Source of the DNA: Nitratidesulfovibrio vulgaris str. Hildenborough
GTDB lineage: Bacteria > Desulfobacterota > Desulfovibrionia > Desulfovibrionales > Desulfovibrionaceae
Direction: 5' to 3'
Assembly (NCBI RefSeq): GCF_000195755.1
Contig: NC_002937.3
Location: 1,740,001-1,772,000, forward strand
DNA length: 32,000 nucleotides
Under the pieces are notes generated by a model. It made no database searches, was not told the origin of the DNA, and was given only the letters and a program-made list of their open reading frames with translations. Of this stretch, positions 3,793 to 28,813 are shown piece after piece (within the stretch, counting starts at the first letter, position 1; every line of letters begins with the position of its first letter). Both the position numbers and the translations under genes were made by a program.

Positions 3793-3811
3793 GAGTCCCC
3801 CCTGACAACCG

Positions 3812-3843
3812 AAAGGCCGTGGTCTCCCACGGCCTTTTCCTTT
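3812..3843. terminator. Bidirectional rho-independent terminator between convergent lptG and engB
   Basis: Stem aaaggccgtgg (3812-3822) / ccacggccttt (3827-3837) with loop tctc. T-rich tails follow on both strands. Confidence 0.7.
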
Positions 3844-3910
3844 GAAAGCGAACGGTGCATCACTGAAAAGCCCCGTGGTGTGACCACGCCAGCCCCTTTT
3901 GTGATGTGAG

Positions 3911-4561
3911 CTATGCTGTCACGTCGTCGATGGCATCACTGGTATCCGAAGGGGCATCTTCCGCTTCGTCGTCGGCAGATAGTCCGCCAGCGGCAAGGGC
4001 ACGCAGTTCGCGCCACAGGTCGGCGATGCCGAGCCCCGTCATGGACGCGGTGACGAGGGGCTTTCTGCCCCCCAGAAGCACCGCCCACTGCTTCTGCCTG
4101 TCGGAACGTTCACGCAGCTTGCACTTGTCACCCTTGGTCAGCACGGGCAGCAACGGAATGTTGTTGGCACGGGCGTAGCTGGTGAGGTCGACATCCAGCC
4201 GTTGCGGGTCGAGACGGCAATCGAGAAGTACGGCAAGACCCCGCAGGCTCTTGCATGAGACGATGTACTTCTCGATGAGCTTTGCCCACTTTTTGCGTTC
4301 TTCCTTGCTGCACTGGGCATAGCCGTATCCCGGAAGGTCTACGATGTAGAATCCTTCCGGTTCGACTCTGTAGTAGTTGACGCTGCGGGTCTTGCCAGGT
4401 GTCGAACTCGTCTTCGCCAGTTGCTTGCGACGGGCAAGAGCGTTGACGAGTGACGACTTGCCGACATTGGATCGTCCGGCAAGGGCTATCTGTGGCGCGT
4501 CCAGATGTATGAGTTGTTCCAGCGTATAGGCTGTGGTTTCAAGCACAAGGGTCGATGACAT
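3911..4561 (-). CDS. engB: Ribosome biogenesis GTPase YsxC/EngB (YihA)
   Basis: G1 [10 protein letters not shown]3 DLPGYG and G4 TKGDK, in the order and spacing typical of EngB. It carries an acidic Ala/Asp-rich C-terminal tail. Confidence 0.9.
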
Positions 4562-4603
4562 GGGGTATCCTGCTGTTTTATCAGGGAGCGGGCAGGGCGC
4601 ATC

Positions 4604-4633
4604 TTGACAACGCCCCCCGTCTTGGAAGACAAT
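4604..4633 (+). promoter_or_regulatory. Candidate sigma70 promoter for aroQ-efp
   Basis: TTGACA (4604-4609), 18-nt spacer, GACAAT (4628-4633). A 15-bp palindrome follows immediately (4641-4655). Confidence 0.4.
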
Positions 4634-4705
4634 GTTAGCTTGCCCAAGTTGGGCATAGCAAACCCACCTTAAAGCATTACAGCAGGAAACTCAAACGAGG
4701 ACACC

Positions 4706-5173
4706 ATGCCAAGTTATAGGCTGCTCATCATGAACGGCCCCAATCTCGGTGCGCTTGGTGAACGCCAGCCCGAGATATACGGAACGACAGGCATGGATAC
4801 CGTGCCTGCCCTTGTGAAGAGCCTTCTTGGTCCCGCCGCATCCGACATCGAACTGACGTTCTTCCAGTCGAACCATGAGGGCGCGCTCATCGACCGTCTT
4901 GAGCAGGCACGCCGCGACGGGGTGGATGGTGTCATCCTCAACGCGGGTGCGTTCACGCACACCAGCCTTGCCTTGGCAGACTGCCTTGCGTGGATTGGCA
5001 TCCCGTGTGTCGAGGTCCACCTCAGCAATGTCATGGCGCGGCAAGAGCCCATGCGTCACAAGAGCCTCATCGGCAGACACGTTATCGGCATTATCGCGGG
5101 TTTTGGCATCATGGGCTACGCCCTCGCCGTACAGGCGATGGTGCAGCATTCGAGAAAGAGCGGCGACGCTTAG
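4706..5173 (+). CDS. aroQ: Type II 3-dehydroquinate dehydratase
   Basis: 155 aa. Contains [42 protein letters not shown] and EVHLSNV, the characteristic AroQ motifs. Confidence 0.95.
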
Positions 5174-5213
5174 GCGGGCGCCACATTCATACGACCAGCA
5201 TACCGGAGGATTC

Positions 5214-5771
5214 ATGTATTCGACCACCGACTTCAGGAAGGGCCTGAAGATTGAACTGGACGGCACCCCGTTCGAAATCGTCGATTTCCAGCATTTCAAG
5301 CCGGGCAAGGGCGGCGCCATGGTGCGCACCAAGCTTCGCAACATCCTGAACGGCCGGGTTGTCGACAATACCTTCCGTTCCGGCGAAAAGGTGGGGCGTC
5401 CCGACCTTGAAAGTCGCGACATGCAGTACCTCTACCATGAGGGCGACGACCTCGTGCTCATGGACCTCACGACCTATGAGCAACTGTACATGCATGAAGA
5501 CCTCACCGACGGCAAGGCCGGCTTCCTGAAGGACGGCCAGCAGGTGCGCGTGCTGCTGTACAACGGCAAGCCCCTTGACCTTGAACTGCCGGTGTCTCTC
5601 GTCCTTGAAGTGGTCGAAACCGAACCCGGCGCCAAGGGTGACACGGTCAGCAACGTCACCAAGCCCGCCAAGCTGGAGACCGGCATCGTCGTGCAGGTGC
5701 CCATCTTTGTGAACCAGGGCGACCGCATCAAGGTCGACACCCGTTCACGCGAATACCTCGGTCGCGAATAG
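5214..5771 (+). CDS. efp: Translation elongation factor P
   Basis: 185 aa starting [43 protein letters not shown] (KPGKG loop). GGAGGA at 5205-5210 precedes ATG 5214. The track ORF 4875..5771 is an upstream read-in extension. Confidence 0.95.
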
Positions 5772-5810
5772 CCACCCGCGTCCTCTGTGGACGACTTGGC
5801 CCTGTTCATG

Positions 5811-5852
5811 TAAGGGATATGGTCGATTGCGGCCGTATCCCTTATCATTTCC
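5811..5852 (+). terminator. Hairpin, possible efp terminator
   Basis: 9-bp perfect stem taagggata (5811-5819) / tatccctta (5836-5844) with a 16-nt loop, followed by tcatttcc. The U tract is weak. Confidence 0.4.
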
Positions 5853-5900
5853 AACGCCCCGGAGGGTACCGCCACGGAAGGCAACAAGCTGGCCCGCGAA

Positions 5901-8231
5901 TTGCTCGGGCTGTTCCTCATTTTCTGGGGGCTGCTGCTTCTGCTCAGCCTTGCCACGTTCGACCTGCGTGACCCGAGTCTCAATCATGTCGTAAGCAACC
6001 CGACCGAAATCCGCAACGGTGCCGGGATGTTCGGCTCATATCTCGGGGGAATGCTCGCCGACGCCTTCGGCATTGCCGCCTTCCTGTGGCCTGTCGGCTT
6101 CATCGGCCTTGGTGCGCGTTACATCATCGTCAGCTTCGACATCGCATGGTGGCGATGGGCGGGCCTGCTGGCGCTTTCTCTGTGCATGGTGACAGCAGGG
6201 GCCGCGTGGGAGTTGTCCCTCGGTGATGTCAACGCTGGAGGCGTCCTTGGCGACCTGCTCTACCGTTTCTCGTGGAAGGCCCTCAGTCCGCGAGGCTCCA
6301 CCCTTGTGTGGCTGTTCCTGTGCATCATCGGGTTGCAACTCACCTTCGACATTTCGTGGACGGCGCTTTTCAGACGCATCGTGGACAAGGTCCGCGCAGA
6401 CCTTGAAGCGCACCCCGTTTCACGTCCCCAGTTGCCCGAACTCAAGTTGCCACGTCTCGGCCTGCCTTCCGGGTTGCACCTTCCCGGCCGCAAGGGCGCC
6501 GAGGGCAATGCGCCTGCGACACTGGCTGTCGTCGATGTCACCCCCGACGGCAGCGACAGCACGAACGGCGCACCGAGCGTTGTAGCCCGAGAGGCTTCAA
6601 CGCCACGCGGCATGCCTGTCGAAACCGACGACTTCGTGCTCTCCGAAGACCGTCTGCAACCCCCTGCAAGCGAATTGCCGTTCGAGGTGGTTCTGGATGC
6701 CGACACCGACGGTGTTGCCGACCTCACGGCCGATGTAGAGAGCGACATTTCAGAAGGGGCCGGCCGCCCGAAGGCCAAGATGCGTCGCAAGTCGCAGTTG
6801 CCCCCGCTTGACCTGTTGCACAGCGCCCTCAACGAAGACAGCCGGCCCGATCGTGAGGTGCTTGAAGGCAAGGGGCTCAGTCTCACCAACTGTCTTTCCG
6901 ACTTCGGGGTTCAGGGCGAGCTGACCCGCATCACCCCCGGACCCGTCGTCACCATGTTCGAGTTTCGCCCCGCGCCCGGCGTGAAGGTGAGCCGTATCGC
7001 CAATCTCAGCGACGACCTGGCCCTTGCGCTCAAGGCCATAGCCGTGCGCATTCAGGCTCCCATTCCCGGCACGGACACGGTGGGCATCGAGATCCCCAAT
7101 GAGACACGCGAGACGGTGTGCTTCAAGGAGTTGCTGTCGTCCGACACCTTCAAGGGGGCAAGCTCGCTGCTCACACTCGCCATCGGCAAGGATATCGCCG
7201 GACGTCCGACAGTGGCCGACCTTTCGAAGATGCCCCACCTTCTTGTGGCAGGGGCCACGGGTGCGGGCAAGAGCGTATGTCTCAACTCCATCCTGCTCAG
7301 CATCCTGTACAAGGCGCGCCCCGAAGACGTGAAGCTGCTCCTCGTGGACCCCAAGCGCATCGAACTTGCCGTCTATGCCGACCTGCCGCATCTTGTGCAC
7401 CCTGTGGTCACGGAGATGGCCCACGCCAAGAACGCCCTCGACTGGGCCGTGCACGAGATGGACAAGCGCTATGAGGGGATGGCCCGGCTGGGAGTCCGTA
7501 ACATCGCGGGGTACAACCAGAAGCTTGAGGACATGGGCAAGGAGCGTCCGGCAGACCTTGCCGACCTTGAGGCCATGCCATATCTCGTCATCATCATCGA
7601 CGAACTGGCAGACCTCATGCTCACTGCCGCCAAAGAGGTGGAGACCAGCATCGTGCGTCTGGCACAGCTTGCCCGCGCTGCAGGCATTCACCTCATCCTC
7701 GCCACGCAGCGGCCCAGCGTGGATGTCGTCACGGGACTCATCAAGGCGAACTTCCCGTGTCGCATATCGTTCCAGGTCACTTCGAAGCACGATTCGCGGA
7801 CGATTCTCGATACCGTAGGGGCCGAATTCCTTCTCGGAAAGGGCGACATGCTCTTCAAGCCTAGCGGCGGCAAGCTTCAGCGCCTCCACGGTGCGTTCGT
7901 CAGCGACGATGACGTGAACGGCGTGGTCGCCTTCTGGAAAAAACAGCAGCCGCCTTCCTACAAGGTGGATTTCGCCGAGTGGGGCAATGAGGGAACCCTT
8001 GATGGCAACGGAGGCAGCGGGGGGGCTGGCGACCTTGCCGACGACCCTGTATACGCCGAAGCCGTCGAATTCGTCATGGGACAGGGCAGGGCGTCCATAT
8101 CGCTCATCCAGCGCCGGTTCCGCATCGGTTTCAACAGGGCGGCCCGCTACGTGGAACAGATGGAACAGGACGGCATCATAGGCCCGGCTGACGGCAGCAA
8201 ACCGCGCTCCGTCATCCGGGGTAAAGAATGA
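5901..8231 (+). CDS. ftsK: DNA translocase FtsK
   Basis: N-terminal TM helices, a Pro/Ala/Asp-rich linker, and a motor domain with Walker A GATGAGKS and Walker B YLVIIIDELAD. The C-terminal gamma-type winged helix reads ISLIQRRFRIGFNRAARYVEQMEQDGIIG. The listed start is TTG 5901, which lacks a correctly spaced SD; CTG 5889 has one (see findings). Confidence 0.9.
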   Translation: MLGLFLIFWGLLLLLSLATFDLRDPSLNHVVSNPTEIRNGAGMFGSYLGGMLADAFGIAAFLWPVGFIGLGARYIIVSFDIAWWRWAGLLALSLCMVTAGAAWELSLGDVNAGGVLGDLLYRFSWKALSPRGSTLVWLFLCIIGLQLTFDISWTALFRRIVDKVRADLEAHPVSRPQLPELKLPRLGLPSGLHLPGRKGAEGNAPATLAVVDVTPDGSDSTNGAPSVVAREASTPRGMPVETDDFVLSEDRLQPPASELPFEVVLDADTDGVADLTADVESDISEGAGRPKAKMRRKSQLPPLDLLHSALNEDSRPDREVLEGKGLSLTNCLSDFGVQGELTRITPGPVVTMFEFRPAPGVKVSRIANLSDDLALALKAIAVRIQAPIPGTDTVGIEIPNETRETVCFKELLSSDTFKGASSLLTLAIGKDIAGRPTVADLSKMPHLLVAGATGAGKSVCLNSILLSILYKARPEDVKLLLVDPKRIELAVYADLPHLVHPVVTEMAHAKNALDWAVHEMDKRYEGMARLGVRNIAGYNQKLEDMGKERPADLADLEAMPYLVIIIDELADLMLTAAKEVETSIVRLAQLARAAGIHLILATQRPSVDVVTGLIKANFPCRISFQVTSKHDSRTILDTVGAEFLLGKGDMLFKPSGGKLQRLHGAFVSDDDVNGVVAFWKKQQPPSYKVDFAEWGNEGTLDGNGGSGGAGDLADDPVYAEAVEFVMGQGRASISLIQRRFRIGFNRAARYVEQMEQDGIIGPADGSKPRSVIRGKE

Positions 8232-8248
8232 TACAAAGGAGTCGGTTC

Positions 8249-8926
8249 ATGAACCGTAAGACCCTTCGCGCCATCGCGCTCTCGGCGTTGCTGCTGCTTG
8301 GCGGCACGGCGTCCGCCCTCGCCGGGACTGCCGCGCAGGACATCCAGAAGCGTTACGATACGGTGACCACCCTCAAGGCGGCATTCACCCAGAAACTGCT
8401 GCATCGTGAGAGCGGTTCGACCGAGACGCGCAACGGCACCCTGCTTTTCCGCAAGCCCCTTCTCGTACGATGGGAGACCGGTGGAAAGAATCCGGAGGTG
8501 CTGGTCATCTCATCGCAGGACATCTGGAACTTCCTGCCCGATGAGGAACTCGCCTACCGTTACCCGCTAGACCTCGTGCAGGACTCGAAGTCCATCATCA
8601 AGGTCATCACGGGACAGGCGAAGCTCGATCAGGACTTCAATGTCGTCGAAGAAGGACAAGAGGAAGGGCTCACCCGGCTGCACCTCTACCCGAAGGAGCC
8701 TGTGCAGCAGTTGACTGAAGCCATCCTGTGGGTCGACCCGCAGGAGCACCTCATCCGCCGCGTTCGCGTCTACGACTTCTACGGGAACGAGAACGAGATA
8801 GACTTCACGAGCCTTGAAGCCAACGCGACCGTGGCGGACAAGGCATTCACCTTCACGCCGCCCAAGGGCACTGAAGTGCAGGACAGGCTGAAGGAAGGGG
8901 CTCCAGAAAAACAGCTATTCAACTGA
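8249..8926 (+). CDS. lolA: Outer-membrane lipoprotein carrier protein LolA
   Basis: Signal peptide MNRKTLRAIALSALLLLGGTASALA, then LolA-like TLKAAFTQ...G.LLFRKP..VRWE. AGGAG at 8237-8241 lies 7 nt before ATG 8249. The alternative in-frame ATG 8228 overlaps the ftsK stop (ATGA). Confidence 0.85.
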   Translation: MNRKTLRAIALSALLLLGGTASALAGTAAQDIQKRYDTVTTLKAAFTQKLLHRESGSTETRNGTLLFRKPLLVRWETGGKNPEVLVISSQDIWNFLPDEELAYRYPLDLVQDSKSIIKVITGQAKLDQDFNVVEEGQEEGLTRLHLYPKEPVQQLTEAILWVDPQEHLIRRVRVYDFYGNENEIDFTSLEANATVADKAFTFTPPKGTEVQDRLKEGAPEKQLFN

Positions 8927-8958
8927 TGCTTTAAGTATTCGCTCAAGCGAAGACACAA

Positions 8959-8994
8959 CAAGAGGCAGCCGTCCTTCGGGAAGGCTGCCTCTTG
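8959..8994. terminator. Strong hairpin between convergent lolA and rluB
   Basis: 12-bp perfect stem caagaggcagcc (8959-8970) / ggctgcctcttg (8983-8994) with a 12-nt loop. Flanks are moderately T-rich on both strands. Confidence 0.6.
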
Positions 8995-9105
8995 CTTATA
9001 TCGATGAAACCTCATGGATGATGCGCTGGTGTCGCTACCCATCCCCTCGAATTCGTATCGCAATGCCCTGTCATCATCCAAGACAAGCCGGAACCACCAG
9101 TGTGT

Positions 9106-9984
9106 TCAGGAGAGTCCGGCGGCCTTGCGAAGCGCCTTCACCTCATGGTCTTCCAGTCGGCGACACGCACCACGAGACAGGTTGCCGAGTTCTACGGGAC
9201 CTTGCTGGATGCGCAAAAGGCGAAGCACGGTAAGCCCGAGGTCGCGGCACATGCGGCGAATCTGCCGGTTGATTCCCTGATGGAGCACCATTTCAAGTTC
9301 CACCCCATACTCCGACCGGTCGATGATGTATGCCTCTACAGGCGCCACGCGGTCGCCCTCGGCAAGAGTCATCCCGGAACGCATGGCGGTCAACGCTGCG
9401 GGTGGGATGTCTTCACGAACCAGCACCCTGTAATATTTGGGAAGATGCCATTTGGGATGGGTCAGGCGATGCGTGAGGTCTCCGTCGTCCGTGAGCAGAA
9501 GCAACCCTTCCGAGAAGAAGTCGAGCCGCCCCACAGGATAGAGTCGTACGGTCTTCAGGTCGTCGGGGAGGATGTCGAGGATGGTTGTCCGCCCCTGCGG
9601 GTCGCGCACGGTGGAGACGACCTGAACGGGCTTGTTGAGCATCACATAGGTATGGCGATGCCGGTTCAGCGCTTCGCCGCAAGCCAGCAGACGTCCTTCG
9701 ACCTCGATACGGTCTGTGGCGGGGAAAACACGGCGGCCCATCTCCGTGACCACCTCGCCGTTCACGCGCACTTTCCCGCCCGCGATGAGGGTGTCAGCCT
9801 GCCTGCGCGAGCAGACACCAGCCCCGGAGAGGGCCTTGTTAAGCCTCGTCCCGCCATCCTCCACTTCGTCGGGGGAAGTGCCCGCTTGCGGGGCAGGGAC
9901 GTGGGGCACGGCAGCCCGCTTGCGGGGAGACGTGTGCTGTCGGGTGCTCCGGGAATCACCTTGACGGGGGGAATCATGCTTCAC
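9106..9984 (-). CDS. rluB: Pseudouridine synthase, RsuA/RluB family
   Basis: S4 domain RLNKALSGAGVCSRRQADTLIAGGKVRVNG, catalytic VGRLD motif, and GLLLLTDDGDL. Basic N-terminal extension. The GTG start overlaps the stop of the upstream gene (GTGA, 9981-9984). Confidence 0.85.
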   Translation of the reverse strand: MKHDSPRQGDSRSTRQHTSPRKRAAVPHVPAPQAGTSPDEVEDGGTRLNKALSGAGVCSRRQADTLIAGGKVRVNGEVVTEMGRRVFPATDRIEVEGRLLACGEALNRHRHTYVMLNKPVQVVSTVRDPQGRTTILDILPDDLKTVRLYPVGRLDFFSEGLLLLTDDGDLTHRLTHPKWHLPKYYRVLVREDIPPAALTAMRSGMTLAEGDRVAPVEAYIIDRSEYGVELEMVLHQGINRQIRRMCRDLGLTVLRLLRIQQGPVELGNLSRGACRRLEDHEVKALRKAAGLS

Positions 9985-10619
9985 GGACGGATGACCTTGG
10001 TTGCGAGTTGCAGGCTCGTTACGACGTCAAGCATGTTCGTCGTCTGGCCCACTGCCTTTTCGGACAGAAGCCCGAAATGGTCAAGGCACGTTCCGCATAC
10101 GAGAATGTCGACCCCCATCGCTTCAAGCTTGTTCAGATGCGTAACGGCAGGGTGCTCGCGTGTGGCGAGCCTGACGCCGCCATTGACGCAGACGATGCGC
10201 CAGAGTTCGTCACCGAGTTCGGGCAGTGTCGCGAGGAAATTGGCCATGAGCTTGCCCCCGAGTACGTCATCTCCGGAACCGAGCGTTTCGGAGGTGATGA
10301 AGACGGTCACCTTCTGGGGCATCTCTGCCGTACCAGCGATGGCGGCAATGCCACGGGCATCCATGACTTCGCAATCGCAGGAAGGCGCCACTGCGGAGTC
10401 CTTGCGTACAGCTATGATATTCCAGAGGCCTTCCGGATCGGCATGGACGCTGGTATCGTACCCCCGGCTTGTCAGAAAGCGGGCTACGTTTTCGCTGGCG
10501 GGCGCGTTGTCGACCGTGACGGTGCAACGGGCGGGGGCTTCAGTGTCGAGAAGGGCCTTGCACCGCAGGACAGGCTGGGGGCAGGGAAGTTTCTGGCAGT
10601 TCAGAGTGATTTCTGGCAT
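9981..10619 (-). CDS. YedF-like protein: TusA/SirA-type domain fused to a DsrE-like domain (sulfur/selenium carrier family)
   Basis: 212 aa. The N-terminus MPEITLNCQKLPCPQPVLRCK carries the CPxP TusA motif. The C-terminal half (VTVFITSETLGSGDD...VCGTCLDHFG) looks DsrE/YedF-like. GGAGG lies 5 nt before ATG 10619, so I used Met11 of the track ORF as the start. Confidence 0.7.
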   Translation of the reverse strand: MPEITLNCQKLPCPQPVLRCKALLDTEAPARCTVTVDNAPASENVARFLTSRGYDTSVHADPEGLWNIIAVRKDSAVAPSCDCEVMDARGIAAIAGTAEMPQKVTVFITSETLGSGDDVLGGKLMANFLATLPELGDELWRIVCVNGGVRLATREHPAVTHLNKLEAMGVDILVCGTCLDHFGLLSEKAVGQTTNMLDVVTSLQLATKVIRP

Positions 10620-14100: not shown

Positions 14101-14262
14101 CCCTTGATTGGCATCGGGCGCACACGAGGCAAAGAGCCCTTTGGCTGCCTTGCTAGTGCCCGGTGCCTGTCCTTCAGTATTTCCAAGTACTAGCCGCCCC
14201 TGTAGCAAATACGACATGAAACCCATGATTGCAGTAGGTTAGCGATGTCGGCGTTCCGCAAA

Positions 14263-14290
14263 AGTTAACATAATTTACATTATGGGACAT
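14263..14290 (-). other. dif: dif-like XerC/XerD chromosome dimer resolution site
   Basis: The minus-strand reading is ATGTCCCATAA-TGTAAA-TTATGTTAACT, compared with E. coli dif GGTGCGCATAA-TGTATA-TTATGTTAAAT. That gives 6/11 in the XerC arm (including the inner CATAA), 5/6 in the central region and 10/11 in the XerD arm. It is an AT-rich patch in a non-coding gap. GGGNAGGG motifs switch strand on either side of it (see findings). Confidence 0.75.
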
Positions 14291-15553: not shown

Positions 15554-15743
15554 GTGCGCAATGGATGTTGCAACCGCCACGGCGTATGACCGCTTGAGTC
15601 TGCGCCGTGGTCTTTCTCTCGCCAATCCTCTTGAGTCCCCCCTGCCCCGCCAGGCGTCCCAGTGCAAGGCACCAGTGCTGCTGCCCATGCGCGGGGCGAC
15701 GACATCGGATTTCGAGCCTTTTTACTTCTCTGCGACGAGTCCA

Positions 15744-15782
15744 CAAAAAGAAAAAGGATTGCAGCGGCCAGCTACAATCCTT
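15744..15782 (-). terminator. Rho-independent terminator of the secG-tRNA-Leu transcript
   Basis: Minus strand: AAGGATTG-(13-nt loop with an inner AGC/GCT pair)-CAATCCTT, followed by TTTCTTTTTG. Confidence 0.75.
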
Positions 15783-15793
15783 TCATCTTTCAT

Positions 15794-15880
15794 TGGTGCC
15801 GAAGGAGGGACTCGAACCCTCACGGGATTTCTCCCACTACCCCCTCAAGATAGCGTGTCTACCAATTCCACCACCTCGGC
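15794..15880 (-). tRNA. leuU: tRNA-Leu (GAG), type II with long variable arm
   Basis: rc = GCCGAGGTGGTGGAATTGGTAGACACGCTATCTTGAGGGGGTAGTGGGAGAAATCCCGTGAGGGTTCGAGTCCCTCCTTCGGCACCA. The anticodon loop is TTGAGGG (GAG) and CCA is encoded. It lies 12 nt downstream of secG, matching the secG-leuU arrangement I recall from E. coli. Confidence 0.95.
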
Positions 15881-15892
15881 ACTGTTACAACA

Positions 15893-16243
15893 CTAATTGG
15901 CCTTGGGAGCCTCCGTTGCCGGGGCTTCAGGCTGCGCAGCAGGTGCCGCAGGCGCGGCGGACTTCTGCGGGGCGACTTCTTCGAACTTCACGTCGATGAT
16001 GCTGGACTCGTCGGACTTGTGCGAGCTGGTCATGTAGTTGTAGCTCAACGACGTGATGATGAAGAGAACTGCGAGAAAGGCGGTAAGCTTTGCCAGCAGG
16101 CCACCAGCACCGGTGCTGCCGAACACGGAAGCGTTGCCGCCGCCGAAGATGACGCCCATACCCTCTTTGCCGGACTGGAGAAGAACCAGAACGACAAGAA
16201 TCAGACAGGCAATCACATGAAGGGTCAGAACAAGATTCTGCAC
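15893..16243 (-). CDS. secG: Preprotein translocase subunit SecG
   Basis: 116 aa starting MQNLVLTLHVIACLILVVLVLLQSGKEGMG...GGG...FG, then a second TM helix and an Ala/Pro-rich tail. GTG start with AGGAGGA 7 nt upstream. Confidence 0.9.
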   Translation of the reverse strand: MQNLVLTLHVIACLILVVLVLLQSGKEGMGVIFGGGNASVFGSTGAGGLLAKLTAFLAVLFIITSLSYNYMTSSHKSDESSIIDVKFEEVAPQKSAAPAAPAAQPEAPATEAPKAN

Positions 16244-16280
16244 CGTACTTTCCTCCTCGGACGGAACGCGCGGCTACGCG

Positions 16281-17036
16281 TCATGCCAGAATGATGCGGC
16301 TGAAGCTGACAGCCTGCAAAGAAGCGCCTCCTACCAGCAGACCGTCGACATTGTCAAGAGAAAGTAGTTCTGCGGCGTTGTCAGGCTTCACGCTGCCCCC
16401 GTACAGGATGCGTATGGCGGCACCGTCGCGACCGTAACGGGCTTCGAGTAGCGAACGGACAAGAGCGTGAGCCTCGACGACTTCGGCAGGCCCCGCCACC
16501 TTGCCCGTACCGATAGCCCATACGGGTTCGTAGGCCACCACAAGCGACTGGGGTACATAGGTCGCGTCGACATCTGCAAGCCCGACCTGCAGCTGATGCG
16601 CCAGCACGTCTTCAAGCCTGCCAGCCTCACGTTCATCAAGCTTTTCGCCGATGCACAGTACCACACGCAGTCCGGCCTTCAGGCTGAAAGCCGTCTTGCG
16701 CGCGACCGTCTCGTCGTCCTCACCGAGAATATGACGCCGTTCAGAGTGCCCGGTGAGCACCCATCCGCATCCGGCATCGAGCAACATGCCGGGTGCGATT
16801 TCGCCGGTGTAGGCCCCTTCGGTAGCCGGGTAGACATCCTGCCCGCCGATGGCAAACCCCTCGACGTCCTTGAAGGTGTCATGAAGGGCATGGAGCGCCG
16901 TGAAGGGGGGGCACACGAGCACCTCACGGTCTGCGGGCAGTGACCCGGCGACGGCGGACACAAGTTCGCGTCCCGTAGCCCTAGCCTCGTCGATGGTCTT
17001 GTACATTTTCCAATTGGCGGCGATGAGCTTCTTCAT
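16281..17036 (-). CDS. tpiA: Triose-phosphate isomerase
   Basis: 251 aa starting at Met60 of the track ORF. Contains MKKLIAANWKMYK, GHSERR, YEPVWAIGTG and ILYGGSV. Confidence 0.95.
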   Translation of the reverse strand: MKKLIAANWKMYKTIDEARATGRELVSAVAGSLPADREVLVCPPFTALHALHDTFKDVEGFAIGGQDVYPATEGAYTGEIAPGMLLDAGCGWVLTGHSERRHILGEDDETVARKTAFSLKAGLRVVLCIGEKLDEREAGRLEDVLAHQLQVGLADVDATYVPQSLVVAYEPVWAIGTGKVAGPAEVVEAHALVRSLLEARYGRDGAAIRILYGGSVKPDNAAELLSLDNVDGLLVGGASLQAVSFSRIILA

Positions 17037-17055
17037 GGCTACGGCTCCGTTTCTG

Positions 17056-17550
17056 TTATGCGGTGCAGGCATCGCTGCCGTCCGCAAGGTCACACTCGAA
17101 GATGAGAGCGTCTTCTCCGGTATCCTGATAGTAGTGCGGGCGCACCCCGATACGTCTGAAGCCGAGGGCTTCGTAAAGTCCGATGGCAGGAGTGTTGCCC
17201 GTGCGAACCTCAAGGACGGCCCTCGTTATGCCCATTTTGACAGCCACCTGCAACAGGATGCCGAGCAGCCGACGCCCCAGCCCGTGCCTGCGCCGGTCCG
17301 GATGCACCGCGATGTTGAGTATTTCAAGTTCTCCTGCGGCGTGGTACACGGCAGCATAGGCCACGATACGCTCTTGGTCGCGCAGGGCGAACACCGAGAA
17401 TATACGCTGTTCGAAAGCGAGAAGAAACTGTTCTTCGCTCCACGGGGTGCTGAAGCACGCCTGTTCAAGGGCCGCCACCTCCCCCATGTCTTCACGGCCC
17501 AGCCGGACGAACGTTGCGGACTGCGCGCCACGAGACGTGTCACCAACCAT
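17056..17550 (-). CDS. rimI: Ribosomal-protein-alanine N-acetyltransferase (GNAT family)
   Basis: PWSEEQF, ILNIAVHPDRRRHGLGRRLL and LEVRTGNTPAIGLYEALGF match RimI-type GNATs. The start is uncertain: ATG 17550 is chosen by N-terminal length comparison with RimI; ATG 17574 is the alternative. Confidence 0.75.
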   Translation of the reverse strand: MVGDTSRGAQSATFVRLGREDMGEVAALEQACFSTPWSEEQFLLAFEQRIFSVFALRDQERIVAYAAVYHAAGELEILNIAVHPDRRRHGLGRRLLGILLQVAVKMGITRAVLEVRTGNTPAIGLYEALGFRRIGVRPHYYQDTGEDALIFECDLADGSDACTA

Positions 17551-17572
17551 ATCCCTTTCCTTGCGTGTGCTC

Positions 17573-18109
17573 ATGTCCGACACCACTGAATACATCGAAG
17601 TCACGGATGATCAGGACAGACCCCTTGTCATCATGCCCACGAACGAAGCCGGCAGGCAACGTCTGCGCCGCCGGGTCGTGCTGGTGGCACTCTATGACAG
17701 CCGGGGAAGGCTGTGCCTGCAACGCCGTTCGCCGCACAAGCTCATCCATCCCGGATGTTGGGACCTTTCAGCCACCGGGCATGTCAGGGCGGGCGAGTCA
17801 CGAGACGAAGCCGCCCTGCGTGAGTTGTCCGAAGAACTGGCCGTGACTGGGGTACGGTTGAGGCATATCGCGACTCTCGCGGCTTCGCAGGCGACAGCCA
17901 ACACCCACGTCACCCTCTTCGAGGCTTCAGGCTATCGAGGGCTGCCGATTCCGTGCACCGACGAGGTCACCGAAGTGACCTTTACAGACGCCGACGAACT
18001 TCAGGGCCTTATCACCCATTTCCCCGACCTGCTCACCCCCGCCCTTCTATGGGCGGCACAGCACGGTCATCTCTTCCCTTCCGTCACCAGAAGCGACACC
18101 ATGTCCTGA
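17573..18109 (+). CDS. NUDIX hydrolase
   Basis: 178 aa with the Nudix box GHVRAGESRDEAALRELSEELAV. It resembles IDI-type Nudix proteins but lacks the catalytic Cys context (see rejected items). Start is Met43 of the track ORF. Confidence 0.8.
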   Translation: MSDTTEYIEVTDDQDRPLVIMPTNEAGRQRLRRRVVLVALYDSRGRLCLQRRSPHKLIHPGCWDLSATGHVRAGESRDEAALRELSEELAVTGVRLRHIATLAASQATANTHVTLFEASGYRGLPIPCTDEVTEVTFTDADELQGLITHFPDLLTPALLWAAQHGHLFPSVTRSDTMS

Positions 18110-18858
18110 TGCACCAGACCGTTGGTGGCAAGCAACGCCCTGCCGAAGCCATAGGCCGTGCCGTCGAATGACGTGACGGCCCCTCCCGCCTCCTCGACCA
18201 GCAACCACCCGGCTGCCGTGTCCCACGGCTTGAGGTCGTCTTCGTAGAAGGCTTCGTAGCGTCCGGCGGCCACATAGGCGAGGTCCACAGCCGCGGCACC
18301 GCAGCGGCGCACGCCACGCGCCTCGACGAGCACACGCCGTAACCTGTCGACGACCTCATCGACCTTCTCCGAGATGGTGTACGGAAAACCGGTAGCCACC
18401 AGCGATTCGGCAAGGGGCATCCTGCGCGAGACGTGCACCGGTTCCCCGTTGCACCACGCGCCGCCCCCTCGTGTGGCCCAGAAGGTCTCACCCATGACGG
18501 GGATGTCGACGACGCCGAGGGCGACCCCGCCGTTGCGCCACAACCCGATGGACGTGGCGACGAAGGGCACCCCATGCGCGAAGTTGGTGGTGCCGTCGAT
18601 GGGGTCGATGATCCAGCAGTCTTCACCGGGGGTGAGGCTGCTTGCGCTTTCTTCGGCAACGAAGGTCGACCCCGGCAGAACCTGTTCGAGACGAGCCTTG
18701 AGAAAGGCCTCGACGGCCATGTCGGTATCGGTGACGAGGTCTATGCGCCCCTTGAGGCGTACATTGCGGGGGCGCTTCCAGTGCTCGCGGACAAGGTCGC
18801 CACTTTCGCGGACGACGTCAAGCACACGGTGCAGAAGCTCCGTTTCGGGGATGGACAT
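18067..18858 (-). CDS. suhB: Inositol monophosphatase family protein (SuhB-like)
   Basis: Contains FVAEE, WIIDPIDGTTNFAHG and WDTAAGWLLVEEAGG. Its 3' end overlaps the convergent NUDIX gene by 43 nt. Confidence 0.9.
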   Translation of the reverse strand: MSIPETELLHRVLDVVRESGDLVREHWKRPRNVRLKGRIDLVTDTDMAVEAFLKARLEQVLPGSTFVAEESASSLTPGEDCWIIDPIDGTTNFAHGVPFVATSIGLWRNGGVALGVVDIPVMGETFWATRGGGAWCNGEPVHVSRRMPLAESLVATGFPYTISEKVDEVVDRLRRVLVEARGVRRCGAAAVDLAYVAAGRYEAFYEDDLKPWDTAAGWLLVEEAGGAVTSFDGTAYGFGRALLATNGLVHQDMVSLLVTEGKR

Positions 18859-18876
18859 GATCCGCTCCGGGGGAAA

Positions 18877-19899
18877 TCAGTTGATATAGACGCGGCTGAA
18901 GAACTTGCGGTCGTCCAGTGTGCGTCCTGTACCCCGCACCACGGTGGTGAGGGGGTCTTCGTCGATGATGACCTTGAGCCGGGTCTCGCGTGCGACGAGG
19001 GCGTCAAGCCCCTTGAGCAGCGAACCGCCTCCTGCGAGCAGCAGGCCGTTGCGGGCGATGTCACCTGCGAGTTCGGGAGGGGTCTTCTCAAGGGCGCGCC
19101 GTATGGCCGTGAGGATGACACGCACGGGTTCACGCAGTGCCTCGCGGATATGTCCGTCGCTCACACGCACGACCTTGGGCGTGCCCGTCAGCATGTCCTT
19201 GCCGGAGACCTCCATCAGAAGCTGTTCCGGCAACGGAAAGGCCGAACCGATGGACATCTTGATGCGCTCGGACATGTTCTCGCCGATGAGGAGTTGGAAC
19301 TCCTCCTGAAAATACCGCTGAATGGCATGATTCATGGCGTCGCCCGCCATGCGCACCGATTCGGCATATGCAATGGCGGACAGGGAGATGACCGCAACTT
19401 CGGTCGTGCCACCGCCGATGTCCACGACCATGCTGCCCAGAGGCTCATGGATGGGCAGGTTGGCACCGATGGCAGCCGCCATGGGTTCTTCGACAAGACG
19501 CACGTCACGCGCCCCGGCTTGCGTCGCCGATTCGATGACAGCACGCTTCTCGACCTGAGTGATGCCCGTGGGCACACAGATGACGATGCCCGGCTTGACG
19601 ATATTGAAGCCCTTGATGACCTTGCGGATGAAGAACTCGATCATCTGCCGGGTCACCTCGAAATCGGCGATGACCCCATCCTTCATGGGGCGTATGGCCC
19701 TGATGCGCTGCGGCGTACGACCAAGATATTCCTTGGCTTCACGTCCGACAGCCAGCACCGAGTTGCGTTCGGTCTCGATGGCGACCACAGACGGTTCGTT
19801 GAGGACGATACCGTCGGCACGGGTGAACAGCAGCGTGTTCGCCGTGCCAAGGTCCATGGCGAGGTCCTTGCCCAGAAAACCGAACAGCTTGCGCAGCAT
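18877..19899 (-). CDS. mreB: Rod-shape determining actin homologue MreB
   Basis: 340 aa with DLGTANTL, VVDIGGGTTEVAVIS and LAGGGSLLKGLD. No mreC/mreD lies downstream; suhB follows after 18 nt. Confidence 0.9.
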   Translation of the reverse strand: MLRKLFGFLGKDLAMDLGTANTLLFTRADGIVLNEPSVVAIETERNSVLAVGREAKEYLGRTPQRIRAIRPMKDGVIADFEVTRQMIEFFIRKVIKGFNIVKPGIVICVPTGITQVEKRAVIESATQAGARDVRLVEEPMAAAIGANLPIHEPLGSMVVDIGGGTTEVAVISLSAIAYAESVRMAGDAMNHAIQRYFQEEFQLLIGENMSERIKMSIGSAFPLPEQLLMEVSGKDMLTGTPKVVRVSDGHIREALREPVRVILTAIRRALEKTPPELAGDIARNGLLLAGGGSLLKGLDALVARETRLKVIIDEDPLTTVVRGTGRTLDDRKFFSRVYIN

Positions 19900-20939
19900 C
19901 AGGCATCCTCACCCGTGTCGACAGGCTCTGCAGGGGCGGCGAACACGGGAATGCGCCGCTCTACCTGTGCCTGCGGCAAGGTCTGGCGCAGGCGGTTGCG
20001 AAGATACAGGTTCTCGAGGAACAGTGCGAGATGATCGACGCACATGCGCACGAAGTCGCGCATCTCGTCCGGCATGCGACGAGGTTCGGTCTGGGCAAGG
20101 CACAGGACACCGCGCGTGACCTTGTGGATGATGACAGGCAGACACATCACCGAGGAGAAGACGGGCATGTGCACCCCCTTGCCGAACAGCGCGGCGACGG
20201 GGGAACCGTCGGTACCTTCCGAGAAGACAGGGGCGTCGTTGCGGAACACCCAGCCGACGATGCCGTTGCCCATGGGGAACGTCGGCACGTCCCCATCGCC
20301 AAGCAGCATCTGACGGCTTTCGCCTTCGATGGCGTAGTTTTCGCCCGTACCGTCCCGTGATGCGAAGACACAATATTCGAAACCGGTGGTTCCGGCGACG
20401 ATCTTCAGGAAATGATGCAGAAAAAGAGGCCATTTGGTGTAACGGCCCCGCAGTTCATGGACGAGTGACAGGCTGGCGAAGTATTGTGCTACAGACTCCT
20501 GACGGCACTCGCGACTACCTTCGAGATGGATGCCCGCGAGCAGTTCGGTGAACAGGTGCAGCACCTTCTGGTCCTTGTCGGAGAAGGAGTACTGGCGCTT
20601 GCTGTCGATGCACAGCGCACCGCCCCCCCGCACCGGGCACCCCATGAAAGCCTTGATGGTCGCCTCTTCGTTGCTACGGTAGTAGCCGAGGTGGCTCTGG
20701 CGCTGATCGAAGTTGTTGACCAGCAGGGGTTGGCGATTACGGAGTATCCAGCCGACAAGCCCCTTGCCCGGGGCTATGGAGGTTCCTTCCGCGACCATGT
20801 CGCCAAGGCTGAACGAGGCGGCTATGGGATAGACCTCCGCATCGTCACCGGGAAGGAAGAGGACAGCCGAATAGGCATCAAAGACACTGCAGACGATACC
20901 GAGAATATGTTCGTAGCACTGGCGGGTGTTCATATCCAT
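19899..20939 (-). CDS. Tandem GAF-domain protein without a recognisable output domain
   Basis: 346 aa with two GAF-like halves (GKGLVGWILRNRQPLLVNNF... and GNGIVGWVFRNDAPVF...). Its stop overlaps the mreB start by 1 nt (TGATG at 19897-19901). Confidence 0.7.
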   Translation of the reverse strand: MDMNTRQCYEHILGIVCSVFDAYSAVLFLPGDDAEVYPIAASFSLGDMVAEGTSIAPGKGLVGWILRNRQPLLVNNFDQRQSHLGYYRSNEEATIKAFMGCPVRGGGALCIDSKRQYSFSDKDQKVLHLFTELLAGIHLEGSRECRQESVAQYFASLSLVHELRGRYTKWPLFLHHFLKIVAGTTGFEYCVFASRDGTGENYAIEGESRQMLLGDGDVPTFPMGNGIVGWVFRNDAPVFSEGTDGSPVAALFGKGVHMPVFSSVMCLPVIIHKVTRGVLCLAQTEPRRMPDEMRDFVRMCVDHLALFLENLYLRNRLRQTLPQAQVERRIPVFAAPAEPVDTGEDA

Positions 20940-21201
20940 TTCCCTGCCGCGACCGGGTCGGGCGGGTCTATGTTATCGGATAACGGTGGTCTTGCCACCG
21001 GGTGGTGCGCTTCGTCCATTGCTTTAACAAAGCCATACGTTCTACCGCAACAGGCTTTTCAGCCGTCCCGACGTCGGAATGCCAACAATGCCAAGCCAGC
21101 ACTGCACGACCGGGTATTCTGTTTACGGTAGAATTTTTCACGAAAAAAAAATAGGCTTTATGTCCGGGGGGCGAAGTTTCGTCCGGAACATAAGGAGCGT
21201 C

Positions 21202-22938
21202 ATGAAAACCACGTGGAAGAGCCTCTTCAGCAAAAGCGACTTTCCCTGCCGGGAGGACGGCAGTGTGCCGACTCCCCTGCAGTTGGGCACACTCGGGGAA
21301 TTGCGGCGCTTTCTCGACGTGGTCCACATACGGCACTGCCTTGTCCGCCCCTACTTTGAAACCGAGGACTATCCGCTCGTCGAAGCACGCGAACTGTTGC
21401 CATCGTTCGAATCCGACATGTGGGAATACAAGCAACTGCCGGGATTCAGCCTCGTGGCGCTGGCTCGCCCCCTCAGCTATTTTCAGGAGATATTCCAGTT
21501 CGACATCCTGCACCCGGTTCTCGACTCGGCCAGCGTAGCCGAAGGGGCCTCGTGCCCCCTTGAATCACATGTCATCGCCCGCAACGTGCAGACCATGCAG
21601 ATGCGCCTTCCCAAGGCGATGCAGGAGTCTTTCAGGCAGCGCTTCTCGCGCATGGACACCTCCGTCCCCGACTACTATGGCACGCTCACGCCCTACCTGC
21701 TTGCCATGGACAGGGGGCAGGTCTTCGCCCATGACGGATTCGGGCACTTCCATCTCGCCGGTGTGTACGCCTCCTTCCCCTCCGACCTCGACAATGAGAT
21801 CAAGAGATTCGGTCTGCGTATCGGAAAATTCGCCGTGGGCGACGATGACATGTACGAACGCAACAGGCTGTTCGTATACCAGTACCTGATGGAACTGTAT
21901 GGTTTTCCCATCGTTTCGGAACGGCGAACGTCAAGCGCCCTCTTCGCCCGCCGACTCCACAAGATGGGCGAGAAGTTCCTCATACGGGTGCTTGGCCAGT
22001 CCGACCGCACCATCACCACCATCAGCAACGAGGGCGGCACAAGCCACTATCCGCGTCTCGACAAGATTGCGCTCGTCCGAATCGACAGCGACCAGGAAGA
22101 CGCGTTGCAAGCCATCGACGAGATGGGAGCCTTCCTCGACCGGGAGAGGCGTGTTGTCATCATGCGCGTCTCCTACAAGCAGCACCGCTTCAACCCGGAC
22201 AACGTAAGGCAGGACAGAGCCCTTTCGGTGGACAGGCAGGAGATCATCCACCCGCTCACCGGTGAGCCGTTGCCCAACATGAACATCATCAAGGACACCT
22301 CGAACATGTTCCTTCGCCTCAACGACATCGTCCGGGGCGAATACACGGGGCGCATCGTCTACAAACGTACCGAGATCGTCGAGAACACGGATACCGACGA
22401 GAAGCGCCTGAAGTTCCTCTTCTCATGGCTCTCGAAGCATCAGCGGCGGATGATCGGCTACAGCGACGAATTCTTCTCCAACGTCAGCAAGGTGCTCGAC
22501 AACTACCTGCTCACGCCGGACAACTATGAATCGTTCGGGCAACTGCACGACCTCTATCAGGAGGTCTGGGCCAAATACAGCTACATCCAGCAGGCCCGCA
22601 AGGTGCGCTTCCTCGAAGACATCCAGAATCGCCTCTACCGTGGCGAACGCATAGGCTACAGGCGCATGCTGGCCGAAGCCGTGGCCTTGCTGCACGGGCT
22701 GAAATTCGAGATCGTCAGCTATTTCGATACGCTCGTGGCAAGCGTGATTCGCATTGGAGAGGCCATTCTCAATGACAGGTATCTTCTGCGCACCTACATC
22801 GAACGCCGCGACGAGGAACTTACGCGCGGCGGGCAGGAGATACGCAAGAACTATGGCAGACTCGTCTCGCTCATAGACGAATTCAAGGCCATACGCCGCT
22901 CACGTCACGGCAAGCACTCCACGATGACCACCACATGA
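21202..22938 (+). CDS. Hypothetical protein (578 aa), no family recognised
   Basis: AGGAG at 21193-21197 lies 4 nt before ATG 21202 (Met42 of the track ORF). It is a long uninterrupted ORF whose composition looks coding. The protein looks soluble, with no TM segment, P-loop or other motif I can name. Its stop overlaps ATG 22935 of gcvT. Confidence 0.7.
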   Translation: MKTTWKSLFSKSDFPCREDGSVPTPLQLGTLGELRRFLDVVHIRHCLVRPYFETEDYPLVEARELLPSFESDMWEYKQLPGFSLVALARPLSYFQEIFQFDILHPVLDSASVAEGASCPLESHVIARNVQTMQMRLPKAMQESFRQRFSRMDTSVPDYYGTLTPYLLAMDRGQVFAHDGFGHFHLAGVYASFPSDLDNEIKRFGLRIGKFAVGDDDMYERNRLFVYQYLMELYGFPIVSERRTSSALFARRLHKMGEKFLIRVLGQSDRTITTISNEGGTSHYPRLDKIALVRIDSDQEDALQAIDEMGAFLDRERRVVIMRVSYKQHRFNPDNVRQDRALSVDRQEIIHPLTGEPLPNMNIIKDTSNMFLRLNDIVRGEYTGRIVYKRTEIVENTDTDEKRLKFLFSWLSKHQRRMIGYSDEFFSNVSKVLDNYLLTPDNYESFGQLHDLYQEVWAKYSYIQQARKVRFLEDIQNRLYRGERIGYRRMLAEAVALLHGLKFEIVSYFDTLVASVIRIGEAILNDRYLLRTYIERRDEELTRGGQEIRKNYGRLVSLIDEFKAIRRSRHGKHSTMTTT

Positions 22939-24065
22939 CCCATACAACCCTGCAACCCAGCGACAAGGAGACGGAGTTGTCTGACCTTCTGCTGACCCCA
23001 CTCAATGCATGGCATCGCGCCCAAGGTGCGAAGATGGCCCCCTTCGCCGGTTGGGACATGCCCATCCAGTATGAGGGCATCCTCGCCGAACATCAGCACA
23101 CCCGCACCCATGCGGCCCTGTTCGACATATGCCACATGGGCGAATTCGCCCTGCGCGGCCCCGGCGCGAAGCAGGCCCTCGCAAGGGCCGTCACCCACAA
23201 TCTCGAGACGCTCAAGCCCGGACGCTGCCGCTACGGATTCCTTCTCAATGAGGCAGGCTGCGTGCTTGACGACCTCATCGTCTACTGTCTGGCCGAAGAC
23301 GACTACATGCTCGTCGTCAACGGGGCCTGCATAGCGTCAGACTTCGCCGCCTTGCGCGAACGCCTTCCCGCATCGCTGCACTTCGAGGACATCTCCGCAG
23401 CCACCGCAAAACTCGACCTGCAGGGGCCGAAATCCATCGACGCACTGGAGGGGCTTCTGGGGAGGAGTTTCCGCGAACTCGGCTACTTCGCCTTCACGCA
23501 CACCACCTTCGACGGTGCCAATCTCATGGTGAGCCGTACCGGATACACCGGAGAACTCGGTTACGAGCTCTATCTCCCATGGGACAAGGCAGAGACCCTG
23601 TGGACGCGCCTTCTCGAGAATGCCGACGTCAAGCCTGCGGGCCTTGGCGCACGCGACACTCTGCGACTCGAAGTCGGACTTCCCCTCTACGGGCAGGACC
23701 TCGACACGACCCACACACCAGCGGAAGCAGGCTACGAAGGCATGCTGACGAACACCGTCGACTATGTGGGCAAAGGGCGTGACCGTGAGGTGCGCGAGGT
23801 ACTCGTCCCCCTCGCCATTCCGGGCAGGCGTGCGGCGCGGCATGGCGACGCGGTGGCCCTTCCCGACGGCACTGTCGTCGGCGTCGTCACCAGCGGTTCG
23901 TTCGCCCCCAGTGTCGGACATGCCGTCGCCCTCGCCTACGTCAAGAAGCCCCATGCCGAAGAGGACTCGTTCATCATCAAGGCCGCAAGGGTTGAGCTCG
24001 AAGCGAAGCGGGCACCCCTGCCCTTCTACGCTGGCGGCACCGCCCGCATGAAGCTGCAGGGTTGA
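22935..24065 (+). CDS. gcvT: Glycine cleavage system T protein (aminomethyltransferase)
   Basis: TPLNAWHRAQGAKMAPFAGWDMPIQY, ALFDICHMGEF, VSRTGYTGELGYELY and ARDTLRLE match GcvT. The alternative start TTG 22977 has AAGGAG (22965-22970) 6 nt upstream and would give an N-terminus of E. coli-like length. Confidence 0.9.
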   Translation: MTHTTLQPSDKETELSDLLLTPLNAWHRAQGAKMAPFAGWDMPIQYEGILAEHQHTRTHAALFDICHMGEFALRGPGAKQALARAVTHNLETLKPGRCRYGFLLNEAGCVLDDLIVYCLAEDDYMLVVNGACIASDFAALRERLPASLHFEDISAATAKLDLQGPKSIDALEGLLGRSFRELGYFAFTHTTFDGANLMVSRTGYTGELGYELYLPWDKAETLWTRLLENADVKPAGLGARDTLRLEVGLPLYGQDLDTTHTPAEAGYEGMLTNTVDYVGKGRDREVREVLVPLAIPGRRAARHGDAVALPDGTVVGVVTSGSFAPSVGHAVALAYVKKPHAEEDSFIIKAARVELEAKRAPLPFYAGGTARMKLQG

Positions 24066-24075
24066 ACCAGAAAAC

Positions 24076-24108
24076 CGGGGGGCTCTGCCGACGGCGGCCC
24101 CCCTTTTG
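24076..24108 (+). terminator. Rho-independent terminator after gcvT
   Basis: Stem ggggggc (24077-24083) / gcccccc (24097-24103) with an inner gccg/cggc pairing, followed by TTTT (24104-24107). Confidence 0.7.
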
Positions 24109-24116
24109 AGGATAGA

Positions 24117-24866
24117 GTGCGCACGTTCTTTCTGCCTTCCGAACAGTGGTCGCCTCCCTATGCCCTCACCGGGCAGGAGGCGAGACATCTCACAAAGGTC
24201 GTACGCGTACATGCGGGCGACCTCATACGTCTGCTCGACGGGGCCGGACGCGAAGGCGTCTTTCGTGTGACCGGCACCAGTCGCAACAGCGTCGAGCTCA
24301 CGCCCGAATCCATCACGACCCACCCCGAACCTGTTTCACGCGCCGTGCTGGCGGTGGGATGGGGAAAGGCGGTACGACGCAGCTGGCTCATGGAGAAGGC
24401 TGTCGAACTTGAGGCTTCCGCCATCTGGCTATGGCAGGCCGAACACAGCCAGTCCCCCGTGCCGGATGACATCAAGGAGTCGTGGCTCGCCCAGATGGTC
24501 GCCGGAGCGAAACAGAGCGCCAACCCGTGGCTGCCCGCGCTCCAGACACTTCCGGGCGGCATCGAGGAATTGCTGCGGGCATCGTCGGACTTCGAGCGCC
24601 GTTTCATGCTCTGGGAGGGCGAAACCCCGGAAGCCCTTCTTGAAGCCAAGGATGTGGGCGGGGTCGGAACCACCCTTTATGTCGTCGGCCCTGAAGGAGG
24701 ATTCTCCGCCCGCGAGGTGAAGGCCCTGCGAGAAGGCGGCATGATGCCCGTCAGCTTGGGGCAACGTGTCCTGCGATGGGAGACAGCCGCCTTGCTGTGT
24801 CTCGGACTGCACTGGTGGGGAAGACAAAAGCCCACAGCAGGGGCTACCGTCGAGGAGCATCCATGA
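24117..24866 (+). CDS. rsmE: 16S rRNA (uracil1498-N3)-methyltransferase RsmE
   Basis: 249 aa starting MRTFFLP, with VVGPEGGFSAREV and LGQRVLRWETAAL. GTG start with GAGGA 4 nt upstream. Confidence 0.85.
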   Translation: MRTFFLPSEQWSPPYALTGQEARHLTKVVRVHAGDLIRLLDGAGREGVFRVTGTSRNSVELTPESITTHPEPVSRAVLAVGWGKAVRRSWLMEKAVELEASAIWLWQAEHSQSPVPDDIKESWLAQMVAGAKQSANPWLPALQTLPGGIEELLRASSDFERRFMLWEGETPEALLEAKDVGGVGTTLYVVGPEGGFSAREVKALREGGMMPVSLGQRVLRWETAALLCLGLHWWGRQKPTAGATVEEHP

Positions 24867-27608: not shown

Positions 27609-27658
27609 ACAATTTGCTTGCAAATTGGCTATCCACGCCATTTTCTCAAAAAGAGGGG

Positions 27659-27687: not shown

Positions 27688-27693
27688 GCTTGA

Positions 27694-28745: not shown

Positions 28746-28813
28746 TTTGCCCCCTGCGCCCGCTACAAAGGTCACGACAAGCCTCTTCACTGAATGAAGG
28801 GGAACCATGAAAC

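Follow-up and report, generated by a model that had tools for sequence, protein, structure and literature searches.

Genes and features of the locus

The window analysed here is a stretch of 32,000 nucleotides from the chromosome of Nitratidesulfovibrio vulgaris str. Hildenborough (D. vulgaris below; contig NC_002937.3, positions 1,740,001 to 1,772,000). Within it, an lpxL-like acyltransferase gene and a gene for a CI-type HTH/S24 peptidase repressor flank an intergenic gap, bounded by the stop codon of the former at 14100 and the ATG of the latter at 14680 (Table 1). A sequence-only reading of this DNA had described the gap as non-coding and roughly 580 bp long; it measures 579 bp and has no called gene inside. 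The same reading placed a 28-bp dif-like site in the gap, about 6 kb from ftsK, and the end of ftsK is indeed 6.0 kb from that site.

Base composition sets the site apart from its surroundings, with a GC content of 0.21-0.25 over 28 bp versus 0.556 across the whole gap. This makes it the sharpest AT-rich patch of the gap, although to call it the only one, as had been done, slightly overstates the case; a second, milder patch (GC 0.32) is found at 14637-14652, just upstream of the repressor gene. A search for RNA families gave no Rfam match in 13900-14900 (E <= 1). A terminator-like hairpin (TGCGGGGAGTTCGCCTCGTA then TTTTTTGAAT) was seen on the minus strand of the gap at 14374-14393, about 90 bp from the dif-like site, and could terminate an unannotated minus-strand transcript beginning near the repressor promoter.

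On the other side of the repressor gene, a tRNA-Leu(GAG) gene at 15794-15880 (minus strand) overlaps a hypothetical 181-aa ORF at 15351-15896 on the opposite strand. As this ORF had no family match and overlaps the tRNA gene, it may be spurious. The repressor gene is positioned between the dif-like site and the 3' end of tRNA-Leu(GAG), and could be the leftover of a tRNA-integrated element; the Logan contig L002 ends within the same tRNA gene.

A 28-bp site with the architecture of dif

Table 1. Position, strand and basis of the features described in the text. Coordinates are window positions; negative positions lie to the left of the window on the same contig.
Feature	Coordinates	Strand	Basis or remark
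Predicted 28-bp dif site, ATGTCCCATAATGTAAATTATGTTAACT	14263..14290	-	window read, matrix score, match to published putative dif
Left arm ATGTCCCATAA, presumed XerC-binding arm, positions 1-11	14280..14290	-	alignment with E. coli dif
Central region TGTAAA, 6 bp, presumed strand-exchange zone	14274..14279	-	alignment with E. coli dif (TGTATA)
Right arm TTATGTTAACT, presumed XerD-binding arm, positions 18-28	14263..14273	-	10/11 identical to E. coli
TT dinucleotide outside the XerD arm, positions 29-30	14261..14262	-	kept in relatives
lpxL-like acyltransferase	13156-14100	+	flanks the gap
CI-type HTH/S24 peptidase repressor	14680-15330	+	flanks the gap; 390 bp from the site
ftsK, DNA translocase	5901-8231	+	Pfam FtsK_4TM, FtsK_alpha, FtsK_SpoIIIE, FtsK_gamma (KOPS-reading)
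321-aa tyrosine recombinase	-4563..-3598 (L006 2728-3693)	-	NCBIfam XerD equivalog
Five GGGCAGGG (KOPS)	3220, 4590, 8084, 9891, 10579 (span 3220..10586)	+	rightward, toward the site
Five GGGNAGGG	15640, 23857, 24016, 31096, 31317 (span 15640..31324)	-	leftward, toward the site
Exception, GGGNAGGG	30936	+	in a strain-variable, phage-like segment

The reverse complement of the window at 14263-14290 is ATGTCCCATAATGTAAATTATGTTAACT, exactly as first read. It divides into ATGTCCCATAA-TGTAAA-TTATGTTAACT, i.e. two 11-bp arms with partial dyad symmetry and a 6-bp centre. CATAA and TTATG, the inner parts of the arms, form an inverted repeat, and the 28-mer contains a perfect inverted repeat of 6 bp (CATAAT/ATTATG). 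The dif site of E. coli is GGTGCGCATAATGTATATTATGTTAAAT. A direct count against it confirmed the identities given in the sequence-only reading (21/28 over the whole site, 20/22 when counted from CATAA onward, and 10/11 for the XerD arm), with mismatches, counted by hand, at positions 1, 2, 3, 4, 6, 16 and 27. The two sites differ in the outer six bases of the left arm ATGTCCCATAA, where E. coli has GGTGCG and D. vulgaris ATGTCC, and in the centre, which is TGTATA in E. coli and TGTAAA in D. vulgaris; they have in common the 11-6-11 architecture, a non-coding location and a position at the terminus.

To score the site, we derived a position weight matrix from 13 proteobacterial dif sites, all of species other than D. 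vulgaris, as given in the tables of Carnoy and Roten (2009; PLoS One 4:e6531, PMC2731167). The scan covered a 46-kb region, consisting of the window plus 7.3 kb to its left and 6.7 kb to its right on the same contig. The site scored 45.4 bits, exceeding the local score distribution by 8 standard deviations, and the sole other positive score in the region (19.8 bits) was the same site on the opposite strand. No second dif-like site was found in the 46 kb, the best separate position scoring -2.8 bits. Within the window, the 28-mer is unique at up to three mismatches, with 0 occurrences expected from shuffled sequences, and a degenerate core (CATAA-N6-TTATGTTAANT) retrieved only the site and its own palindromic echo, against 0.15 expected. 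The site is hence single-copy within the window and the 46-kb region, while a single copy in the whole genome was a criterion of the published prediction (Carnoy and Roten, 2009).

The published prediction and other strains

The site is already known as a 2009 prediction for D. vulgaris. Carnoy and Roten (2009; Table 1 and Table S1) list the same 28-mer as the putative dif of strains Hildenborough and DP4, having required that a site lie near the skew-defined terminus, be found in several strains and occur in a single copy per chromosome. In Hildenborough, they place it at 1,754,277 of 3,570,858 bp, 18,398 bp from the whole-genome cumulative GC-skew maximum, with a 'putative acyltransferase' at 176 bp and a 'putative transcriptional regulator' at 440 bp, and the 40-mer context that they publish for this strain (CCCTGCATGTCCC...TTTTGCG) is identical to ours. 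In DP4, the site is given at 1,713,978, flanked by a 'putative phage repressor' on one side and a 'lipid A biosynthesis acyltransferase' on the other (Carnoy and Roten, 2009).

The published flank distances reproduce the geometry of the window when they are taken to the centre of the site, and we recomputed the DP4 coordinate 1,713,978 from the range of L009. The published putative dif and the site described here are the same object, with an identical 28-mer, 40-mer context, flanking genes, distances and position. Measured along the published chromosome records, the site lies at 49.1% in Hildenborough and at 49.5% in DP4. Contig DAIRNC010000001.1 of GCA_036807195.1 matches the window with 100% identity, D. 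vulgaris DP4 (CP000527.1) with 99.4%, and the complete genome CP116246.1 with 99.3-99.6%. A full-text literature search for the 28-mer sequence returned no paper besides that of Carnoy and Roten (2009), and a search for Xer/dif binding, cleavage, recombination or deletion experiments in Desulfovibrio found none.

Conservation of the motif in related genomes

To follow the motif beyond D. vulgaris, we scanned one genome per species for the pattern GTCNCATAATGTANATTATGTNAAC, which fixes 22 of the 28 positions. Exactly one match per locus was found in each of at least 120 genome-assembly loci. Among the matches listed, the loci are mostly from Desulfovibrionales (Desulfovibrionaceae, Desulfohalobiaceae, Desulfonatronum, Desulfomicrobium and others), with some from Desulfuromonas and Ignavibacteria/Melioribacteraceae, and a weak second dif-like site occurs in just 2 of 120. 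The motif was found in complete chromosomes of Pseudodesulfovibrio, Halodesulfovibrio and Maridesulfovibrio.

Positions that the pattern leaves free are also conserved among the matches listed: T is found at position 2 in 89% of the loci and at position 28 in 97% of the 118 that have full flanks. The pattern-free positions 29-30 are T in 83% of the listed 118 loci each, and the flanks farther out are at background; the conserved element may hence be 30 bp long rather than 28 bp. Position 16 is A in 73% of the related loci listed, and positions 1 and 6 vary among the 118 listed loci with full flanks. This last variation is expected, since the XerC arm is the less conserved arm of dif (Carnoy and Roten, 2009). 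The exact 28-mer also occurs once in each of ten metagenome contigs, only one of which (98.4% identical) resembles the window around the site, indicating that the 28-mer is retained while its surroundings diverge.

GC skew and KOPS polarity

The motif coincides with a switch in GC skew. Skew averages +0.037 to one side of the motif and -0.045 to the other in the 66 listed loci that extend 1.5 kb or more both ways, 61 of which agree in direction (Wilcoxon p = 4e-11). Binned at 500 bp, the skew of the matches listed switches sign at the motif itself, from +0.045 to -0.059. A fixed dif polarity read from this flip was considered and rejected: a plus-to-minus pattern is symmetric under reverse complement, and the flip therefore shows the location of the terminus, not the polarity of dif.

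For D. vulgaris, it had been expected that the GC-skew extremum would lie within a few kb of the site. The raw cumulative G-C maximum of the 46-kb region does not; it is found at window position -3509, 17.8 kb left of the site and just outside the window, in agreement with the whole-genome figure of Carnoy and Roten (2009). To the right of the site the skew stays at about -0.05, and over the 18 kb on its left it is near zero. We therefore also fitted a gene-level regression of GC skew with gene strand as a covariate and a free switch point. The coding-strand effect was strong (coefficient -0.034), and the fit was best with a switch at 14680 or 15351, gene boundaries within or next to the dif gap, with a residual sum of squares (RSS) of 44.6-44.8 versus 63.1 without a switch. 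The expectation thus fails for the raw maximum, about 18 kb to the left, but stands for the strand-corrected switch. A regression on third codon positions disagrees, with the best switch at 26-29 kb and not at dif; we regard this result as noisy, given that strain-variable, phage-like DNA makes up the right end of the region. The raw peak is plausibly displaced because plus-strand genes (lptFG, ftsK, lolA, msbA and lpxL) dominate the 18 kb left of the site, a cause for the 18-kb offset that is suggestive rather than firm.

The KOPS motifs change direction across the site as well (Table 1). No minus-strand GGGNAGGG occurs between window position 1 and the site, and the polarity switches between 10579 (the last rightward motif) and 15640 (the first leftward one), bracketing it. 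Over the 46 kb of D. vulgaris, GGGNAGGG is found on the plus strand seven times and on the minus strand once to the left of the site, versus once and six times to the right (Fisher exact p ~0.01, calculated by hand). In the at least 120 loci retrieved with the pattern, 215 copies of GGGNAGGG point toward the motif and 34 away from it (p = 2e-33), and among the matches listed GGGCAGGG emerged de novo as the most strand-skewed 8-mer (127:22). Given this polarisation of 215:34 in the listed, mostly Desulfovibrionales loci, recognition by FtsK gamma appears to be kept well outside the gamma-proteobacteria; in D. vulgaris FtsK, the FtsK_gamma domain scores 94.9 bits (Pfam). The strand-corrected skew switch at the gap and the KOPS flip across the site together place the dimer-resolution point inside the window, as the sequence-only reading had proposed.

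Xer recombinases and their linkage to the site

The 321-aa tyrosine recombinase encoded to the left of the window reaches 360.7 bits with the NCBIfam XerD model (cut-off 329.6) and 299.4 bits with the XerC model (cut-off 335.15). Carnoy and Roten (2009) label this nearby recombinase XerC, place XerD at 109,666-110,697, and report two Xer genes per such genome. Since their XerC passes the XerD cut-off and not the XerC cut-off, the XerC/XerD naming in D. vulgaris may be swapped or ambiguous. Of the Xer machinery, we saw one XerD-type gene, at a distance of 18 kb, together with an FtsK that carries a gamma domain; the second recombinase is taken from the published table (Carnoy and Roten, 2009).

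These components correspond to the XerC-XerD/FtsK-KOPS system of E. coli, in that converging GGGNAGGG and an FtsK gamma domain are likewise present in D. vulgaris. Unlike in E. coli, ftsK is only 6 kb from the site and the xer gene only 18 kb. If the site works as in the E. coli and Vibrio paradigm, from which we infer Xer binding, cleavage order and FtsK dependence, homologous recombination would first join the sister chromosomes into a dimer. One Xer recombinase would bind the left arm ATGTCCCATAA and the other the right arm TTATGTTAACT, and septum-bound FtsK, oriented by GGGNAGGG, would pump DNA until both dif copies came together at the septum. The FtsK gamma domain would then activate XerD, and two pairs of strand exchanges across TGTAAA would resolve the dimer into monomers.

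Among the 30 listed loci that extend 5 kb or more on the XerC-arm side, 16 have an Xer-family gene (45-64% identical) at 1.0-3.9 kb from dif on that side, always in the same orientation. The D. vulgaris orthologue is 18 kb off, on the XerD-arm side, and inverted. A single recombinase linked to its site is known from difSL/XerS of streptococci and difH/XerH of epsilon-proteobacteria, and the linkage in the 16 loci is similar; unlike these systems, D. vulgaris has a canonical XerCD-type site with its xer gene 18 kb away on the other side.

The neighbourhood of the motif varies in other respects. A homologous CI/S24 repressor (~45% identical) lies 90-180 bp from the motif in L023, L094 and L116 (in the last at 4499-5317, minus strand). 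It is on the XerD-arm side in all three and on the XerC-arm side in D. vulgaris, and in L116 HPPK and xer are on the opposite side of the site from the repressor. As the repressor sits on opposite arms in different genomes, the orientation of dif is flipped relative to shared neighbours. Perhaps dif in Desulfovibrionales was ancestrally a linked module with an XerD-type gene 1-4 kb away on the XerC-arm side, and the linkage was broken in D. vulgaris via rearrangements at the terminus, although we find this history rather doubtful. If true, it would mean that dif has been repeatedly re-oriented or re-seeded relative to its neighbours, possibly by Xer-mediated events with integrated elements.

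Mobile elements and alternative explanations

CTX-phi in Vibrio and the gokushovirus prophages at enterobacterial dif are elements that integrate by way of Xer. A similar case is found in the viral contig L005 (5.3 kb), which carries gokushovirus-type genes (Phage_F capsid, Chlamydia-phage scaffold protein, pilot protein and replication initiator). This gene set, a 4.3-kb prophage, is bounded by two dif-like sites in direct orientation: an identical 28-mer at 388-415 and a degenerate copy, AACGCCCATAATGTAAATTATGCCACTA, at 4685-4712. The related 4.66-kb microvirus contig L003 has a dif-like AACGCCCATAATGTAAATTATGTTAACT at 149-176. The arrangement in L005 is as expected for Xer-mediated integration at dif, and is indirect evidence that the 28-mer has recombined in vivo in some host. 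It also suggests that microviruses integrating via Xer target hosts with a D. vulgaris-type dif. The D. vulgaris window, unlike L005, is without such an element, and its 46-kb region has one dif-like site.

Strain-variable DNA adjoins tRNA genes on both sides of dif (30704-32000, continuing in L010-L013 beyond the window, and 153-229, with L008 1-7268). On the right, tRNA-Arg(CCT) at 30704-30780 is followed by a zf-dskA_traR gene and small genes, with other content in L011 and L012. On the left, a prophage of strain CP116246 that encodes an integrase and a 2608-aa LPD22/LPD3 protein adjoins tRNA-Met (window 153-229); a 450-bp piece of this prophage is 94% identical to window 30870-31319.

Against this background, a mobile element (IMEX or prophage) tied to the CI-like repressor could have left the 28-mer behind as an attachment scar or could use it as a target (att site), in which case it would not be the chromosome's own dimer-resolution site. 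The repressor gene 390 bp away, the tRNA-Leu at 15794-15880, the homologous repressors adjoining the motif in L023, L094 and L116, and the microvirus prophage flanked by the same 28-mer in L005 all fit this explanation. However, an IMEX is recognised by a block of mobile-element genes between two dif-like sites in direct repeat, and no separate site in the 46 kb scores better than -2.8 bits; the surrounding genes (lpxL, msbA, ftsK, secG and tpiA) have housekeeping functions, with no integrase or structural genes among them; and among the matches listed, more than 100 genomes have the motif at the point where skew and KOPS switch, mostly without a nearby repressor. We therefore consider an attachment site in place of dif highly improbable. 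Moreover, since Xer-integrating elements use the host dif, such a role would complement the dif reading rather than replace it.

The AT-rich palindrome could also be an operator or promoter element of the repressor gene, or a regulatory site of lpxL; its perfect 6-bp inverted repeat is intergenic and next to a gene for a helix-turn-helix repressor. Yet 390 bp separate the site from the repressor ATG downstream, the start of that gene has an AT-rich patch of its own, and a promoter scan found no sigma-70-like promoter in 13900-14900. The motif also does not follow either gene: the repressor lies beside it in just 3 of the 120 listed loci, and lpxL ends at most 1.5 kb from the site in 7 of the 98 listed loci with enough flank. 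A regulatory site appears to us slightly less probable still than an attachment site. Short AT-rich palindromes do arise by chance, but a chance resemblance without function has next to no probability given 0 expected occurrences in shuffles, a score of 45 bits that is 8 standard deviations above local scores, an exact sequence kept in divergent genomes, and the skew and KOPS signals at the motif.

The dif reading is in turn supported by the architecture of the site, its match to the consensus, its local uniqueness, its non-coding location at the terminus, the converging KOPS, the FtsK gamma domain and a nearby Xer gene. We conclude that the 28-mer is very probably the chromosomal dif site of D. 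vulgaris.

Significance

As the site was predicted in 2009 and behaves like a textbook dif, nothing in this analysis is conceptually new. Its additions are modest, namely the convergence of KOPS in Desulfovibrionales and a possible reason why the raw GC-skew peak is offset by 18 kb. As the predicted dif, the site would mark where chromosome dimers are resolved in a model sulfate reducer and, for practical purposes, where its replication terminates. It may hence be of use in genome annotation, in reading rearrangements and prophage integration near the terminus, and in engineering such as Xer-based marker excision.
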